Shown here in pieces: positions 7,363 to 47,804 of a DNA stretch of 64,000 nt. Source of the DNA: Eledone cirrhosa. Taxonomy: Eukaryota. The position numbers and the translations under genes are program-made. The stretch is from contig OZ024741.1 of assembly GCA_964016885.1 (NCBI GenBank), forward strand, positions 177,878,001 to 177,942,000. Direction: 5' to 3'. The notes beneath the pieces were generated by a model. The model was not told where the DNA came from and searched no databases. It saw only the letters and a program-made list of their open reading frames with translations. Numbering within the stretch: the first letter of the stretch is position 1; every line of letters starts with the position of its first letter.

Positions 7363-7429
<67 letters not shown>

Positions 7430-7496
7430 ATGTATATATATATATATATATATAGTTAAAAGAATAGAGGTGTAACACACAAGTTATTATATATTA

Positions 7497-7837
7497 TATA
7501 TTGGTAAACGGAATAGAAATTTCTGACAAATTGTTCACAGTTGAAAAATGGTTTAATTAGGAATAAAAGAGTATTAGTGATTGTATGGGTTAGTATTCAG
7601 TTGTGGTTTTAAGTTTTTAAGTTTTTACCGTGCTGTTTGCTCTGATCAGAGCAAACAGCACGGACACTCTATCTCAAAATTATTTTTGAAAAGCATTTAG
7701 AAATGCGCAACCGGTAAAAACTTAAAAACTTAAAACCACGACTGAATACTAACCCATACAATCACTAATACTCTTTTATTCATAATTAAACCATTTTTCA
7801 ACTGTGAACAATTTGTCAGCATTTTCTATTCCGTTTA

Positions 7838-7845
<8 letters not shown>
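7497..7845. repeat. Fold-back inverted repeat (~135-bp arms) of a dispersed repeat also present at 32217-32660
   Basis: 7497-7630 is the reverse complement of 7711-7845; internal perfect 36-bp palindrome at 7628-7663; lies between (TA)n tracts. Confidence 0.9.
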
Positions 7846-7917
<72 letters not shown>

Positions 7918-7998
7918 ATATAATATAATTTAGAGTTTACACTCAATGGGGTCATTTACAATTATTTCAGCTCTAAGAAACATTTCTGAGCAGTATAA

Positions 7999-8282
7999 AT
8001 TAATATATGATAAACACTTACGTGTTTTTATTGTAATTTACAATAAAATAGCTAGAATGAAATATCTTAATTCAAATACATATAGTCTGCTTGTGTCGAT
8101 CTAAAAAATAATAAATCAATACTCACAAACACATATCGGCCTTTTGCCGATATGTGTTTGTGAGTATTGATTTATTATTTTTTAGATCGACACAGGCAGA
8201 CTATATGTATTTGAATTAAGATATTTCATTCTAGCTATTTTATTGTCAATTACAATAAAAACACGTAAGTGTTTATCATATA

Positions 8283-8287
<5 letters not shown>
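7999..8287. repeat. Near-perfect palindrome, ~142-bp arms, 5-bp spacer
   Basis: ...CACATATCGGC-CTTTT-GCCGATATGTG...; arms are reverse complements with very few differences. Confidence 0.92.
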
Positions 8288-8309
<22 letters not shown>

Positions 8310-23383: not shown

Positions 23384-23723
23384 ATAATATAAGATCAAAA
23401 GATGGTTAAAGGAGTTCCATGTATTTTATTATGCGCATTTCAAAAACAAACATCATCATGCAATAATATTTGTGTTTTCATCAGATAAAACAGGAGAACA
23501 TGATATGAAGGCTAAAAAACACTTGTGGATAGTGCAGTTTTAAATCAACATATATATGTTGATTTAAAACTGCACTATCCACAAGTGTTTTTTAGCCTTC
23601 ATATCATGTTCTCCTGTTTTATCTGATGAAAACACAAATATTATTGCATGATGATGTTTGTTTTTGAAATGCGCATAATAAAATACATGGTACTCCTTTA
23701 ACCATCTTTTGATCTTATATTAT
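23384..23723. repeat. 340-bp palindrome with no spacer
   Basis: Centre CAACATAT|ATATGTTG at 23553/23554; 170-bp arms with one mismatch seen. Confidence 0.95.
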
Positions 23724-23742
23724 ATATATATATATATATATT

Positions 23743-25665
23743 GTTATACTTGGGGAGGGTCATATTTGTGTAATATTGCCAGAATTAATAACAGAACACA
23801 CTCACTGTTTGGTTGGTTTTCGCTTCTCGCTGTCTTTTATATTGGTAATCTAACTTACTCGGTCCTCAATGTTGCCATTGACTGACCAACGGTCAAAAAT
23901 AATACAGATACAATATAGACACAAACACATATATATAGTTTATCATAAATCTTTCGTTGCACATCTGCAACATCGTCAGTGGTGTTATATTTTCCTCCTG
24001 TTGTGTTGTATGTTTATGCCATTTTTATTCAGTCTGTTTATATATTTATTTATTTATTTGCTTGTTTGTTTATTTTATTTTGTCTTCTTTGCGCATGCGT
24101 TTGCGTGTGTGTATAGTGTTATGTTTGCTGTGTGATGGGTGACTAGTGTGTGTTTATGTGCTTGTGTATGTATTTATTTATTTATTTATATCTTTTTATT
24201 TACTTATTTATACTTCTCTTAGGTCAGTATTGTTTGTTTGGGTGTTGTTGTTATTCCATTCATTCTTTCTGTTTAGCTTTGGTCTTCTAATTTCTATTTC
24301 ACTAGCCTCTCTGATTTGCCTATCTGCTGGGTCATTTCTATGTTTAGATATTATTCTAATTTCTATGTTGTCTATGTTACCGCCATGTTGTTGTCTAGCA
24401 TGTTCGTATAGTACTGACCCGTTTTTTCGTCCTTTTAGTTCCCCCCAGTGTTGGTCTATCCTTTCACCTATGCTACGAGCTGTCTCACCTATGTATGCTG
24501 TTGTCATGTTTCTGCAAGTACCCTCTGTACATCTTATGCTATAGACTACGTTTCTAGTTTTACAGTTTATCCGGGGGTTCACCTTATATATGATACATTT
24601 CCTATTAGTAAAGTGGGTTTTCTTAAAAGGGTAGGTTTTGTTGATCAGAGATTTTATGGTGGTTCCTGGCTTTTATACCACCTTTATTTTTAAGTGGGTC
24701 TTTCTCAGGGCCTTTCTACACTGCTTAGCTAATTTCCCTCCAGGGGTGGCGTCCACAAACATGACACTCTGCTATCTCTGGTTGTCGTACCATGAGGTGG
24801 CTTTCCCTATCTTATGTCTAGCCCTATCTAAGCTATTCCATGATTTGCTCCTGTATAGTGGGCAAATTCCTTTCATGTCCAGTTCTATGAGGGTCTTATA
24901 CTTTTCCAAGGCTCCTTCGTATACTCTGACTCTGTCTCTTTGGTTGTAACCAGAGAACTGCATGCGGTTGATGAAGTGTTGGATGTGTCTTTCCATTTCT
25001 GTTGGGTCGCACATGCGGGACACATTTTTCATCACTCGTACCAAATCTGCGATCAGAATATTAAACTTAGCACTACTGGACTTTGCTGAGTTTTTGAGAA
25101 TCAGCTATTTGGAGGCCATGGGTTTAGCATAGTGTGAGTGGAGAATTTGGGCTCTCTCGTCTATAGTGTTAATCCAGAGTTCTGTGTCTAATACAGGTAG
25201 TCTATTGTTAGGGTGTTTGGAAGGGAAGTCGATAGTTACAGTTATACTCTGGTGTATGGAATTAGCTATCTGCTGGATGCTTTCCATCGTGCTACGTTCT
25301 AAATCAAACTTGTTAGTGCTCTCTAGTGGGGGTGTTCTTATAACTATATTGATATCGTCTACATAACGAGAGTACATGATGAGGTCTATGGAGCTTTCAT
25401 TAAGGAGATCTTTAAGTCTCGTTTCCCACCATACCATGAAAAGGTTGGCAACATCACCAGCTATGCAGACGCCGATGGCTGCTCCCTCATTTTGGGTGTA
25501 GATTTTCTCGTTGAACTTAAATATGTGGCCCTTTAGGGTAGTTTTGATACTAGCCCCTATTGCATGTGCGACCATTTATCTTTCCTGATCATTGTTTTGG
25601 GGGTCCGTATAGCTTTGGTCCACCCAATCCACCTTCCCATGGGAGATTTTTTGCCATTGAGATTA
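23743..25665 (-). mobile_element. Penelope-like element (probably Naiad clade), 5'-truncated; RT plus GIY-YIG endonuclease pseudogene
   Basis: RT: QNEGAAIG..ANLFMVWW, YSRYVDD, LPVLD, HYAKPMAS; GIY-YIG: NVVYSIRC..C..AYIGETARS..ER..QH, RQIREA..I..PKLN. Inserted in (TA)n. The clade call is inferred from motif style. Confidence 0.85.
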
Positions 25666-25824: not shown

Positions 25825-25827
<3 letters not shown>

Positions 25828-25875
25828 TGTTATTAATTCTGGCAATATTACACAAATATGACCCTCCACAAGTAT

Positions 25876-25916
<41 letters not shown>

Positions 25917-25966
25917 TACTTGGGGAGGGTCATATTTGTGTAATATTGCCAGAATTAATAACAGAA
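25825..25966. repeat. Inverted (25825-25878) and direct (25913-25966) copies of the 54-bp terminus (23743-23796) of the adjacent PLE
   Basis: GTTATACTTGGGGAGGGTCATATTTGTGTAATATTGCCAGAATTAATAACAGAA occurs three times, separated by (TA)n. Confidence 0.92.
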
Positions 25967-25993
25967 TATATATATATATATATATATATATGA

Positions 25994-26026
<33 letters not shown>

Positions 26027-26100
26027 TTTATATATATATGTATATATATATATATATTAGTGAAAAAGAACAAAGGAACTATTATGACATTATAACAAGT

Positions 26101-26156
26101 TTATTGCCGACAGCCGTTTCGTCCGACCCCATGGTGGGACTTATCAAGGCATATAA
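26101..26156 (-). ncRNA. Minimal type I hammerhead ribozyme, U3-A8 core variant
   Basis: Minus strand: TTATATGCC-TTGATAA-GTCC CACCATGGGGTC GGAC-GAAAC-GGCT-GTC-GGCAATAA (stem I, core, stem II, GAAA, short stem III, GUC site). Confidence 0.72.
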
Positions 26157-26528
26157 CATGTGATTGCAAGATCATTGTTTACATCAACGTATCACTCAAG
26201 GCTAGCAGTTTAAAATTGTTGTATACATCAGCAACTCCGCTTTAAGGGGGCTCTTTTATATTAGTTGTCGGGGTCAGGGATTGAAGTTTAAAAATTAGAC
26301 AAAAATATATAATTTACGCATCATTACACCAACACATCACCAATCTCCTTCCACTCAAATTAGAAGCTACATCCTTAGCGAGTATAAATGATAAGTAAGT
26401 ATGTTTTGAAACAGTGAGCAGGTTTTGACATTAGAAAATAGAATAACTTTCACCGTATTTTTGACAAAATAAATGTTTGCCTGATATTGAAGTTTAGAAC
26501 CCTCAGATAAATAGAAAAAGATGAGTAT

Positions 26529-26599
26529 TGACGTACATGGGAGTCGAACCCACATCTTTCGTTATCCAGACCACTGTGCTACCATTACACCAACACATC
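26529..26599 (-). tRNA. tRNA-like cloverleaf (pseudo-tRNA/Pol III unit); further minus-strand copies at 26790-26860 and 27047-27117
   Basis: 71 nt, A box TGGTGTAATGG, B box GGTTCGACTCC, weak anticodon arm, T5 just downstream. Confidence 0.4.
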
Positions 26600-27375
26600 A
26601 CCCATCTCTTTCCACTCAAATTAGAAGCTACATTCTTAGCGAGTATAAATTACAAGTAAGTATGTTTTGAAACAGTGAGCAGGTTTTGAAATTAGAAAAT
26701 AGAATAGCTTTCACCGTATTTTTTACTAATACAATTCTAGCCTGATAATGGGGTTTAGAACCCTCAGGTAAATGGAAAAAGATGAATATTGACGTAGATG
26801 GGAGTCGAACCTACATATTTGATTATCCAGACCACTGTGCTACCATTACACCAACACATCACCCATCTCCTTCCACGCAAATTAGAAGCTACATTCTTAG
26901 CGAGTATAAATGACAAGTATGTTTTGAAACAGTGACAAGGTTTTGAAATTTAAAAATAGAATAGCTTTCACCGTATTTTTGACTAAAGAAATGTTAGCCT
27001 GATAATGGGGTTTAGAAGCCTCAGATAAATGGAAAAAGATGACTACTGACGTACATGGGAGTCGAACCCACATCTTTCGTTATCCAGACCACTGTGCTAC
27101 CATTACACCAACACATCACCCATCTCCTTCCACTCAAATTAGAAGCTACATTCTTAGCGAGTATAAATGACAAGTATGTTTTGAAACAGTGAGCAGGTTT
27201 TGAAATTAGAAAATAGAATAGCTTTCACCGTATTTCTGACTAAGGAATTTTAACCTGATAATGGGGTTTATTCTATTTTCTAATTTCAAAACCTGCTCAC
27301 TGTTTCAAAACATACTTACTTCTCATTTATACTCGCTAAGAATGTAGCTTCTAATTTGAGTGGAAGGAGATTGGT

Positions 27376-27446
27376 GATGTGTTGGTGTAATGGTAGCACA
27401 GTGGTCTGGATAATCAAAGATGTGGGTTCGACTCCCATGTACGTCA
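27376..27446 (+). tRNA. tRNA-like cloverleaf in the inverted unit (nominal anticodon GGA, short variable loop; probably non-canonical)
   Basis: GATGTGT/GTACGTC acceptor, GTGT/GCAC D stem, GTGGG-TTCGACT-CCCAT T arm, TTTTT at 27456-27460. Confidence 0.4.
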
Positions 27447-27581
27447 ATACTCATCTTTTTCCATTTATCTGAGGGTTCTAATCCCCATTATCAGGCTAAA
27501 ATTTCTTAATAAAAAATACGGTGAAAGCTATTCTATTTTCTAATATATATATACAGATATATATATATATATGTGTGTGTG

Positions 27582-27613
<32 letters not shown>

Positions 27614-28584
27614 TGCATATATATATATATATATATGGGGGGGGGGTATGTGTTAGTGTGTGTGTGAAAATGCACACATATGTATCCAGGTATGTATGTA
27701 ATTTGATATTAGTGTGTATATCTGACTATGAATAGGCATTCTAAAATTACATGCAATATAAATGGAGTTTTACATTTATCTGTCCTCATTTTACTAGCGT
27801 CTAAGTCTCACAAGCCGTTTTTACTCATAAAGTTCCATATAGTGACTTGGTCTTAATACACCCCATACTTGTTAACGTACGGATTCATATAGCTAATTAT
27901 GAGTTTTAATATAAAATAGAATCATAGAAAAATATAGTAGTAAACTGATATTGTGTTACATCTTATTGCATTAGTTAATATTTTGCTATATGAACTGTCA
28001 TGCTCTATTATGTTATATTATTGTGGATTATATTTTGTCTTATTCTAACATATACGTTATATTATATATAATACGTGTGTATACATTTCTACCTGTCTGT
28101 ATATATATATATATATATATATACACACAGTCACATACATATATATATGTACCTATGTGTATGCATACAAACATGCTGGTTCCTTGGAGTATTAATTGCA
28201 CTTACAGTATTCCACGATAAAAATAAAAATAATTATTAAAAATTATTATTAAAATGCTTCATCGGTAAACACTCTTCTGAAGTGATACCATTAGCCAAGT
28301 CTTGATCATTAATTCACTGGAAAATTTTGAGTATAATTTGACACATTTAACTCAAGGCAATTATTTATTTGGCCATGTTAATAGGCCGAAACACCACCTC
28401 GCTCAATTAACAACCCTTTACTAATTTGGGGTTTGTCGTGTGAAATCAAATCTTTGAATTTAAAATTTAAAATTCATATTACAAACATTAGAATATGAAT
28501 TTAACCAATTTAATATGAATTTGATATGAATTTAACCAATTAAACCCTCTAAATATATTGGATTTTTTAATCAGATTAATATTG

Positions 28585-43277: not shown

Positions 43278-46200
43278 ATATACACACACACATATATATA
43301 TGTGTGTGTATGTACACTCCTCATACATGTACACACACTCCTATATAAACACTCATACACCTATACTCACATATACGCACACATAAAGACACACATATAT
43401 ATATATATATACACATACACACACACATACATATACATATATATATTCATACATACATACATACATACATACATACATACATACATACATACATACATAC
43501 ACATACTTAAATATATATATATATATATGTATACACACACATAAATATATTTCCATATCATACATAGATATATATTTACTCATGCAATTACGGGTGGTTA
43601 TGTACCTTGTTGCCTTTAGTCATTAATGCATAAACCTAAGGAAGCTAAAACATTGAAAGGTAAAAAATAAGCATGAATGCATATAATTAGGGGAAAGGGG
43701 TACTAATAAATGTTACTCTATATATTAGAATATTTAATGCAAATAATTAGGGGAAAGAGGTACTAATAAATGTTACTCTATATATTAGAATATTTAATTA
43801 GGTTTATTATATTTAATTAGGTTTATAGTATTAAATGTTTTTCGTATACGGTGATTACAAACTAAGACCAGTTCCTGCCTTTTATTTAATAAATCGTCCT
43901 TAGATTTAGTAATTTCCAAGATTTCCCCTGAACATTCCCTCCTGTTCCCAAGATATAGAGTTCTTTGTAGAATGGTGTTCCACGATAACTTGAAATCTAT
44001 TTTTTTCTTTTCATAATTATATACCGCTTCAGCTAAAGATATGGTGTTAGCTAGTTTAGTATTGTTGAAACTACAAGAGTGTGCGAAATATCTTTTCTTA
44101 AATGTGTGTGATCCTATATATGTTTTGTTGGAGTCTGTAGTAGACACAGTGCATTTATATATTACATTATTAATCAAACAGTTGCCATTTAAGGGGCAAA
44201 TGCTTCTATTTCTGCAATTACAGTCATACGTAAGATGGTTGTTGAGGGTGCCTATACTATTCTTATTAATCCTTGAGCTATTCCTATTGTAATTAATGAT
44301 CGCAGGAGAATGAAGGTTGCTTTGTGGGTGGTTTAGTGCTAGGGTTGTATTGTAATTTTGTGTTCTGTTGTTTTTGTGTTGGTGATTTGGGTGGTTGTGT
44401 TTTCTAGGTTAAAGGATTGTATTATTTGCCGTGTTAAAAGGTGCAGTCCTATTTAAATTATGTTGTGGTGGTGCAGTCATATAATTTTTAAGATTATAAA
44501 TGTTGTGGTTGCTTATTTTTTGCTGGAGATTGATTGATGTAGAGTATGAAAATTTAACAGTATATTTGTTAAATATTTGGTGGTATATGTGGTTTGGTGG
44601 AAATGTTTATATAGAATTTCGAAGAATTTGTTGGGGATTTGTCCAATAGTATCCAGGTTGAAGGGTGCGTTATACCATGTTATGTTTATTTTGCGGTTTT
44701 TAGTTAAGGTCTTATTAACACTTATATTATTGTGTCGTGTTCTAGAAGAATTCCTATGGTTAGTATCCTTATTTGTGGAATTTGGTAAATTACCGTGGTT
44801 GTATTTGGTGTTATTTTGGGGTAAATTATGAGATTTTGAGTGCTTGGTATTCATATGTGGTTTGATAACATTGGTCATAGATCGTGTAGTAATAGTTGTT
44901 GTGGTTTTTCAGTTGTTTGGTGTAATAGGAATAACCACTTACGTATTTGTTTCAATGGTATTTTTTGGTGTTTGTAGTTTTTGCTAGGTTTTATGTTTTG
45001 GTCCATAGTAGTGTTGCGGATATATGAGATTTTTTTTGTATATCCACTTCTAGTTAAGGCCTCGTTGTAGAAGGGTGCATTATTATAAAATATATCTTCA
45101 TTGGAAGATAATTTAGAAAGTCTAAGAGGTATGTTATATACTAAGTTCTTGAGTATAGAGCCTGGGTGGTTAGATCGTGTATGTACATAATGTAGATTCT
45201 GGTTAGGTTTGTAGTAAGGTCGATAAGTATTCCTAGAGAGGTCTAAGGTAACGTCATGGAAATTAGCTACTTTTGAAGTGTTTTCAAAAGTGATGCGAAG
45301 GCTGTAATAGTCCTTGAGGAATTTTCTAATTTGTTTTTTTGTTTTTCTCTATATTGGAATTGTTAGGATTGTTAGTTAACAATAGATAATCATCCCGATA
45401 AAGACCACCTTTCAGCTGTGGAAAAGAGTCATTAATGTTATAGAGGAGAAATAGTCCAACGATGTCTGTAACTTGAGCAGAGTCCATGGACCCCATCGTA
45501 ATATCGAATAAGTTGTTATATGTGTTTCTTGTCCAGTGTTCTTCTTGGAAGTTTAGTAAGGTTTTTCTAGCGTGGGTTATGATGTTGATTTCCTCAGTAG
45601 ATAAATCCGATCTATATCTGGCAAAGATCAGTGTTTGTTTAAAAGAATTGGAGAAATCGAAGAATAGTAAGAATCGATGTCAAATTGAATGAATGGAGCT
45701 GAGTTTTTATTCCCAATGGTAGTGAACCATTCAATAACATGGGAAGTGTTAAACATTTTCTAATTTGGGGAATGATACGATCAATAATCTTTTTGCTGAT
45801 ATTACCGATATCAGATGTTGATGGGCATATCAGTCTAATAGATGGGTTCGAGTTAAAGTCAGATTTATGGTCTTTCAGGTTGAAGTGCGGGCTTTTAGGC
45901 GTGAAATGCTCAGTCCTATCTTCAATCTGGAGCTTTTTTACTATATCACATGATATGTCGTTCAAGGATGTTAGTGCGGTAGTATTTGCTTTCTTATAGT
46001 TTTTTCTAAGTTCTTTATATATGAACTGGTTATATTTATCGATATCCATATGGTACAAGTTACTAGTTTTGTCAGAATGGACATGGAACTTGTTTGAATT
46101 TTGGAATTCTGATTTGTGTTTTCTGAATTTTATGTTTTTAATCATGTTCAGTAGGGCGCTCTCAAAATGTTCAAGTTGAATATTATGAGGGGAATTTTTG

Positions 46201-47237: not shown

Positions 47238-47804
47238 TATGTTTATGCATAAATAATCAAACTCAGATAAATACATGTTGGCATAGTTAAAACACATATA
47301 TTTCATAGATTACAAAGTGCATATATCCACACTATATATATAGAGAGGTACAGTTATATTGATATCCAACCAAAAATATACACACGCACAAATAGATGCA
47401 AACCTAAATACACATTTACACATATGCACATAATCATATACTCACATATCCATACATATCTATACATATCCATACATATCTATATCCACACACACATATA
47501 TATATATATAAATATGTATGTATATGTGTGTACATATTTATATGTATATATGTGGGTATAGGTGTGTATGTGTGGATATAGATATGTATGGACATGTGAG
47601 TATATGATTATGTGCATATGTGTAAATTTGTATTTAGGTTTGCATCTATCTGTGCGTATGTATATTTTTGGTTGGATATCAATATAACTGTACCTCTCTA
47701 TATATATAGTGTGGATATATGCACTTTGTAATCTATGAAATGTATGTGTTTTAACTATGCCAACATGTATTTATCTGAGTTTGATTATGTATGCATAAAC
47801 ATAT
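47238..47804. repeat. Inverted duplication (~240-bp arms) inside the upstream pLTR
   Basis: 47238-47490 is the reverse complement of ~47565-47804; absent from the other pLTR. Confidence 0.88.

Follow-up and report, generated by a model that had tools for sequence, protein, structure and literature searches.

Layout of the Locus

The window analyzed here, a 64,000-base stretch of the Eledone cirrhosa genome, holds a block of repeats that consists of two mobile elements, not one. The block begins with a (TA)n target tract (25966–26057, identified from the sequence) at the 3′ end of a fragment of a Hydra-type Penelope-like element (PLE). This fragment, the 3′-terminal 266 bases of a young element (26058–26323, minus strand), stops at the element's short end, and the 115-base tail of other copies is missing. 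On the same strand it carries a predicted hammerhead of minimal type I (26103–26152) with a U3-A8 core variant and a 2-bp helix III that has a self-complementary loop; the cut is predicted to fall after 26109.

At the joint (26322–26332, minus strand), an 11-base microhomology relates the D arm of a tRNA-like sequence (unit positions 7–17) to the PLE sequence upstream of the break. The direct arm of the tRNA-mimic element (26322–27270, minus strand) comprises unit positions 104–260, three whole units, and then positions 1–17, and it has no 3′ end of its own. Its cloverleafs, called by both ARAGORN and Rfam, lie on the minus strand at 26529–26599 (non-decoding, with a GGA loop), 26790–26860, and 27047–27117. 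The inverted arm (27269–27544, plus strand) consists of unit positions 155–260 followed by 1–170, its terminus being the commonest short end of the family, and contains one more tRNA-like cloverleaf (27376–27446, plus strand; ARAGORN, Rfam). A fifth cloverleaf is broken off after base 17, at 26322–26338. Under the cloverleaf of the inverted arm, a leader (27357–27375) and a trailer with the T5 run inside it (27449–27467) are predicted to form a 19-bp stem (27357–27467, plus strand), and this leader/trailer stem recurs in each unit. A (TA)n-rich target tract (27543–27636) lies at the end of the inverted arm.

Much of this layout had been given in a preliminary description of the same DNA. The two flanking (TA)n tracts and the inverted unit at the minus-strand 5′ end are as described there; the 3.6 head-to-tail units of ~260 bp come to 3.7 copies of 257–261 bp by our count. 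The 71-nt cloverleafs number four, are called Ser(GGA) by ARAGORN, and score 37.7–46.4 bits with the Rfam tRNA model (cut-off 29). A T5 run, previously placed ~10 nt downstream, is found 8–12 nt past each cloverleaf, and the hammerhead, previously placed ~45 nt from the end of its segment, folds with a helix I ending 47 nt from that end.

Some other repeats in the window also border (TA)n. A 55-bp inverted pair (25826–25880 and 25913–25965) surrounds a (TA)16 tract and adjoins the element; a third copy of this piece is present at 23741–23795, similar pieces stand beside other loci (L065, L085, L358), and all are probably ends of another (TA)n-targeting element. Long near-perfect fold-backs adjoining (TA)n (23384–23723, 7994–8292, 7429–7917, and 47238–47803) probably represent stubs, set back to back, that belong to other PLE-type families. 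A broken copy of a different PLE occupies 43833–45750 (minus strand), with a protein 37%–39% identical to that of the Hydra-type family.

The Hammerhead Segment Is the End of a Hydra-Type PLE

The segment at 26058–26321 had been taken for a unique sequence. It is a repeat: in the assembly searched (3.0 Gb, 1,796 contigs), this 264-base segment has ~1,000 first-look candidates (1,056), and the 39 other copies that were scored are 98%–99% identical. These other copies run on upstream into RT and GIY-YIG frames. The RT was recognized by motif, as Pfam gave no RT match, and is followed by a C-terminal GIY-YIG domain (Pfam E 0.0019, below the Pfam cut-off). Motifs read by eye include a CxCX5C linker, CxxC and CxH round conserved E and N residues, DKT, and RW-R, the last found where the description of the Hydra clade (PMC8557442) gives an RWK-like motif. 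That clade is marked by an RT followed by GIY-YIG, CxCX5C, CxxC/CxH, DKT, a hammerhead, and a (TA)n target (PMC8557442). Judged by motifs and domain order against this description, the 26058–26323 piece belongs to a Hydra-type PLE: its element has the same RT–GIY-YIG order, linker, CxxC/CxH, DKT, hammerhead, and (TA)n target, and it differs in the U3-A8 hammerhead, the 115-base tail, and ~2.5 kb of sequence 3′ of the ORF. This sequence, between the ORF end and the hammerhead, is non-coding (L061:4772–7400); elements of the clade are described as <3 kb in all.

The hammerhead and the (TA)n target are both features of the Hydra-type PLE, with the hammerhead near its end. Rfam gives the hammerhead at 26103–26152 a weak score of 19 bits (E 0.34; cut-off 34); its fold is complete, with all three helices and the core, and U3-A8 replaces C3-G8. 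Of 46 other copies, 42 have a hammerhead of identical sequence. The loop of the 2-bp helix III is predicted to be able to pair with that of a second copy, so that helix III would form between two molecules. The element has two alternative ends, one short and one long, the latter 115 bases further on, and each of the five back-to-back pairs among the 29 fetched loci combines one short with one long end. A similar hairpin is seen a few bases past both the short and the long end (L048, L077, L036).

A Dispersed Family of tRNA-Like Units with PLE-Type Ends

A 17-mer from the spacer of the tRNA unit has 4,907 exact matches in the genome, against none for the reversed control. The family is a short, AT-rich, non-coding tandem repeat, found from monomer to multimer, and among its subfamilies are A (260 bp), A2 (257 bp), B (290 bp), and one whose anticodon loop is changed. 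We surveyed the ends of 92 arms at 57 A loci and of 51 arms at 31 B loci. Ends are non-randomly placed on the unit (KS P 4e-20), with a short zone of 3′ ends (mode at 170 in A and 179 in B) and a long zone (~203–216 in A, 243 in B), and the unit ends and (TA)4 follows in 70/92 A arms and 46/51 B arms. Back-to-back pairs combine a short and a long end in 31 of 35 A cases (P 2e-6) and 19 of 20 B cases (P 2e-5), or 50/55 in total. Partial tandems, 5′ truncation, an inverted 5′ copy, an optional tail, and a microsatellite target complete the PLE-type traits of the unit.

Tandem and inverted copies and a tail are described for PLEs (PMC8557442), and the tRNA unit resembles the Hydra clade in its target, in its tandem and inverted layout, and in its optional tail, but has no detectable sequence in common with the Hydra-type PLE. 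At the fetched loci, in which few PLE families were sampled, comparison of the unit with PLE ends and 3′ regions gave no homology beyond chance matches of 11–13 bases. Only a 4-bp GCT..AGC hairpin after the unit's long end, with its stem kept and its loop changed between subfamilies, resembles the twin hairpins of the PLE. A PLE-type partner enzyme is likely, to judge from the ends of the unit.

Neither consensus contains a hammerhead core on the sense strand, and no Rfam ribozyme family matches over the units down to E 5. We rejected a hammerhead-like string on the antisense strand, which has a C3-A8 mismatch and a helix II that does not adjoin GAAA, as well as a candidate leader variant taken from one loose end, which matched a single unrelated place. 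The sense strand carries no A-to-G excess as a mark of RNA editing, and the inserted copies show no region-specific constraint, as expected for neutral decay. In metagenome contigs, an exact 24-mer had no match. In one run from another organism (X4, share 0.27), seven contigs cover all bins, five of them fitting only in part, a weak sign that relatives exist.

The preliminary description had noted that the repeat has no LINE tail and had suggested that it may not be an ordinary SINE, and the ends bear this out. Copies do not start at the tRNA start: in most, the 5′ half of the tRNA is absent or the copy extends upstream past the tRNA start in tandem. Their 3′ ends fall at internal unit positions (142–216) and are joined to the target (TA)n. 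The tRNA-unit family is a separate, ribozyme-free family with PLE-type ends, and can be classed neither as a cluster of genuine tRNA genes nor as an ordinary SINE. The literature searched describes no tRNA-bearing, PLE-dependent element, nor is such a passenger described in 10.1101/596502; an entry for the family may exist in Repbase, Dfam, or SINEBase.

Cloverleaf and Stem

The cloverleaf of the unit is non-decoding, with a GGA loop, a 4-nt variable arm, U37, an anticodon stem topped by a G-A pair, and no CCA, and the anticodon loop is altered in one subfamily. Rfam scores the unit cloverleafs at 38–46 bits, compared with 60–75 bits for the other tRNA matches of the genome, in keeping with the earlier remark that a GGA cloverleaf with a short variable arm is not a normal tRNA-Ser; nor are the units the genuine tRNA gene cluster that had been named there as grounds for refutation. 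Calls of tRNA-Ser(GGA) are inflated by this family. Except for one base, the D arm is the same as in the tRNA-Gln genes of this genome (51 pattern matches). We do not take tRNA-Gln as the parent, since only the D arm points to it and full-length identity does not discriminate (43–47/71 with Gln, 41–44 with other tRNAs).

The 19 bases before the cloverleaf are predicted to pair with the T5-holding trailer at −24.8 kcal/mol, a value that none of 1,000 shuffles equaled. The 19-bp stem has four G-U pairs and zero mismatches, with G-U departures on the tRNA strand only, and the predicted folding energy of the unit circle is −57.8 for the sense and −37.1 for the antisense strand. Changes between subfamilies affect 3/92 sites of the tRNA core and stem versus 22/150 spacer sites (P 0.004); two of the three are in the anticodon loop and one turns a G-U pair into A-U. 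The A and B boxes are intact and the same in all subfamilies compared. The acceptor stem of subfamily B is imperfect or damaged, which weakens any strict need for tRNA processing. In the folding model, a monomer cut at tRNA +1 would hold both of its ends side by side in the 19-bp helix.

Other tRNA-bearing repeats also occur in this genome. Genuine-looking tRNA-Gln genes are clustered in tandem higher-order repeats at C1:168,211,720–168,275,618 and C6:47,250,647–47,302,430, and tRNA-Thr clusters occur at two loci (L079 and L081). Another repeat of ~1.7 kb (L080, L082–L090) contains an internal 73-nt tRNA-like gene with GGC, GAC, GGT, or GTC loops, has inverted arms inside it and begins with a small hairpin, and dominates the top Rfam tRNA matches fetched.

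Breakage at A58

In a first tally, 5′ ends appeared near-uniform; the loci had been picked for whole units, and an unbiased sample overturned this result. That sample consists of the first 100 places among the 17-mer matches, from which 88 arms were scored after three unanchored matches, repeats within an arm, and identical-context matches had been dropped. Position 66 is reached by 58 arms, and 37 of these end at 57–66, just 3′ of A58 (unit position 56), a hazard of 0.064 per base versus 0.001–0.011 in seven other bins. Just one of 67 arms ends at 81–100, where a much stronger stem begins. Contig depth in public runs X1 and X5 rises where arms break near A58.

m1A58 blocks reverse transcriptases. 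Second and third passes in subfamily B stop at the next A58 in 7/35 cases, compared with 12/21 first-pass stops in B (Fisher P 0.008) and 37/58 overall (P 4e-5); the second-pass arms, picked out by similarity search, do not form a fully unbiased sample, and their 20% of stops exceeds background. A-type second passes (3/60) are too biased to use. Independent marking of the units in a linear multimer predicts equal rates, and the re-reading of one molecule predicts fewer stops at the second pass. On this sequence evidence, the A58 break and the rarer second stops fit a block by methylation and an enzyme that reads one molecule, possibly a circle, more than once, and ~70% marked templates with ~10% read-through would match both stop rates. 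Rare variants are common to units within a locus at 7.5%–8% versus 1% between loci, a pattern equally compatible with a circle and with a uniform multimer. Break points peak at 61–63 and not at 57, which requires trimming to a local 4-base palindrome or to TA, and the break may instead be a structural stop at the T arm or an RNA end there. A58 is changed in 4/121 passing segments, no clear excess of mutation in the copies that get past it. The DNA copies appear to record a host RNA modification.

Long Arrays and a Satellite

Three A-type arrays of 17–30 units are 7%–11% diverged and have internal duplications, and one of them keeps an inverted arm and both PLE-type ends. A B-type satellite at C28:19,440,624–19,716,546 covers ~276 kb, or 950 units, if continuous (15 inner stretches were sampled, and all are full). 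Its units, of the 290-bp subfamily, are 3.7% from their consensus. Three nearly fixed satellite alleles occur in 1/87, 0/92, and 0/90 dispersed segments, and because these alleles are nearly absent from dispersed copies, we conclude that the satellite grew from one insertion and does not seed the family; one copy of the tRNA unit has grown into a 276-kb satellite. At one of its edges is a coding fragment that we take to be Helitron-like from its motif, and at the other is (TA)n. The giant satellite and the 17–30-unit arrays were considered as source loci and rejected, the former on its private fixed alleles and the latter on their 7%–11% divergence.

Origin of the Block

The tRNA unit and the hammerhead segment are separate families. 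No tRNA unit lies within 1.5 kb of the hammerhead segment at any of the 29 fetched hammerhead loci, and the hammerhead segment is absent from 26 distinct tRNA-unit loci, from 22 taken in genome order, and from 66 further ones (114 in total). In a joint search, one of 40 scored candidates (of 1,563) covered both sides, and it was the window itself. Since the two do not co-occur elsewhere in these samples, tRNA units joined to a hammerhead end are not an element. The preliminary description had proposed a PLE-mobilised element built from tRNA-like repeats: what stands of this, and more firmly than had been proposed, is a dispersed unit family with a PLE insertion signature, and what falls is the hammerhead end as a part of it.

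The joint is at tRNA position 17, where 10/11 bases agree with those of the PLE immediately upstream of the break; against one PLE copy the match is 9/11 and is the single best among the 260 unit positions. The units of the window differ from one another at 157/2,300 sites, or 3.4% per lineage if they were identical at the start, and the PLE piece has three differences from the majority in 265 (≤~1%), one of them common to 12/42 copies, an age contrast with a Poisson P of 0.006–0.02. Because the microhomology at the joint is near-unique and the units are older than the PLE piece, a nested insertion is likely, and we hold it very probable that the PLE piece is a later insertion into the (TA)n flanking the array, deleting ~190 bases or more. 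The age argument fails if the units already differed in the template; no other copy of the middle unit of the window is >94% identical. The surviving inverted arm ends at unit position 170, the short end of the family, and since pairs are nearly always short-plus-long, the end of the lost arm was probably long. None of the contig pieces listed from public runs (X1–X3, X5) bridges the joint.

Two readings would make the block a single event or a single element. The Hydra-type enzyme might have begun on its own RNA, switched at the microhomology to tRNA-unit RNA, and copied 3.6 units. This would explain why the joint is at the best microhomology in the unit, why the PLE piece and the units have one orientation, and why no remnant of the unit's 3′ end lies beyond the PLE piece, and, if true, it would prove that the Hydra-type enzyme is the partner of the unit. 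We judge it improbable: the units are ~3-fold more diverged than the PLE piece, a matching source array was not found, and both outer ends would be short, against a short and a long end in 50/55 pairs. The single mobile unit of the preliminary description, with tRNA units and hammerhead end together, has in its favor that two (TA)n tracts enclose both parts, which are oriented alike, and that schistosomes have a SINE-like repeat, Sm-alpha, that derives from tRNA-Gln and bears a hammerhead (PMC2770079). It can be set aside almost entirely, as the 29 hammerhead loci, 114 unit loci, and 40 scored joint candidates gave no second example, and as the hammerhead end elsewhere continues into an RT gene. 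The lesson for annotation is that elements with a common (TA)n target produce false composites.

A Proposed Mechanism

We consider the block likely to be a composite of a two-armed, ribozyme-free copy of the tRNA mimic, probably made by a Penelope-type RT, and a 266-base Hydra-type PLE end that was inserted later and removed the 3′ end of the repeat. For the unit, the steps of transcription, methylation, and circle formation are those we infer from the sequence of its copies. Read-through transcripts of tandem copies would fold the cloverleaf on the 19-bp stem, and the host would methylate A58 on most molecules, with the methyl group stopping the enzyme. A PLE protein would nick (TA)n on both strands, and the RNA would be copied from the short site on one side and from the long site on the other. 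With unmethylated molecules the enzyme could go on round one unit, most simply a monomer circle, and so produce tandems. A Hydra-type element would later have nicked the (TA)n left by the unit insertion, and a short PLE copy would have been joined to the tRNA D arm via the 11-base microhomology, with the deletion of ~190 bases or more.

The template of the unit might instead be a linear read-through RNA, made by Pol III past T5 or by Pol II from the flank, with no circle and no processing and with the cloverleaf serving chiefly as an internal promoter, as it does in SINEs and Helenus. We lean against this reading while giving it real weight. Both Pol III boxes, A and B, are undamaged and do not differ from one subfamily to another, PLEs are themselves transcribed as tandems (PMC11167929), some second passes do stop (7/35), and long unit arrays exist. 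Yet second-A58 stops are much rarer than first ones; the long arrays are 7%–11% diverged or have fixed private alleles that are missing from dispersed copies; a three-unit pattern search found only two A-type places; 5′ ends do not pile up at tRNA +1 (3/15 at risk stop in 1–20); and Pol III halting at T5 would give RNA without the start sites. Far less probable is the spread of the unit at the DNA level, as a satellite or tRNA gene cluster whose rolling circles were inserted at breaks. The 276-kb array, built of the 290-bp variant and bordered on one side by a Helitron-like fragment, might suggest such a course, but the private alleles of that array mark it as a product and not a source; the fixed 3′ ends, the stems with strand-specific G-U pairs, and the break at A58 are signs at the RNA level; and the genuine tRNA genes of the genome, at 60–75 bits, differ from the unit. 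As a tentative extension of the composite reading, and one that we rather doubt, the units could be ribozyme-free retrozymes in which the tRNA mimic replaces the hammerhead: the host's RNase P would cut every unit at the tRNA start, the 19-bp stem would bring the two ends together to be ligated into a 260-nt circle, A58 methylation by the host would limit copying, and a Penelope-type enzyme would read unmethylated circles repeatedly into (TA)n.

Comparison with Known Systems

Animal non-LTR retrozymes are non-coding, AT-rich units of 150–450 bp that occur as monomers to long multimers, and PLE dependence and rolling-circle copying have been proposed for them (PMC7229834; bioRxiv 10.64898/2026.07.22.740005). 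The tRNA unit resembles them in being short, AT-rich, and non-coding and in ranging from monomer to long multimer. It differs in having no hammerhead, the defining feature of retrozymes, and in having a tRNA mimic on a long stem instead; retrozymes have circular RNA, whereas the unit is known here from DNA copies. In the Poseidon element PAc, two internal RT start sites give an optional tail in vitro, both strands are cut in AT-rich DNA, and insertion needs no hammerhead cleavage (PMC11167929). The short and long ends of the tRNA unit recall these two start zones and this optional tail, but PAc is an autonomous element of another clade (PMC11167929).

Sm-alpha and Sj-alpha of schistosomes are tRNA-Gln-derived SINE-like repeats, and Sm-alpha bears its own hammerhead (PMC2770079). 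The likeness lies in the D arm of the unit, which matches tRNA-Gln except for one base; the difference is that Sm-alpha has tRNA and hammerhead in one unit, and here the hammerhead is an accidental neighbor. Helenus TRIMs have a tRNA-like sequence in a non-autonomous LTR retroelement (PMC10886601). Like them and like tRNA SINEs, the unit is a non-autonomous retroelement whose tRNA-like sequence contains Pol III boxes. It differs in having neither a LINE tail nor an LTR, PBS, or PPT, in copies that continue in tandem upstream of the tRNA start, and in having ends of PLE type.

The family offers a 260-base natural substrate for studies of PLE template choice, of tandems and inverted arms, and of the need for a hammerhead. 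Small-RNA-derived passengers are known for LINEs (SINEs) and for LTR elements (Cassandra, Helenus). For Penelope-like elements, we found none described in the literature searched, and the tRNA unit is a small-RNA-derived passenger with PLE-type ends.
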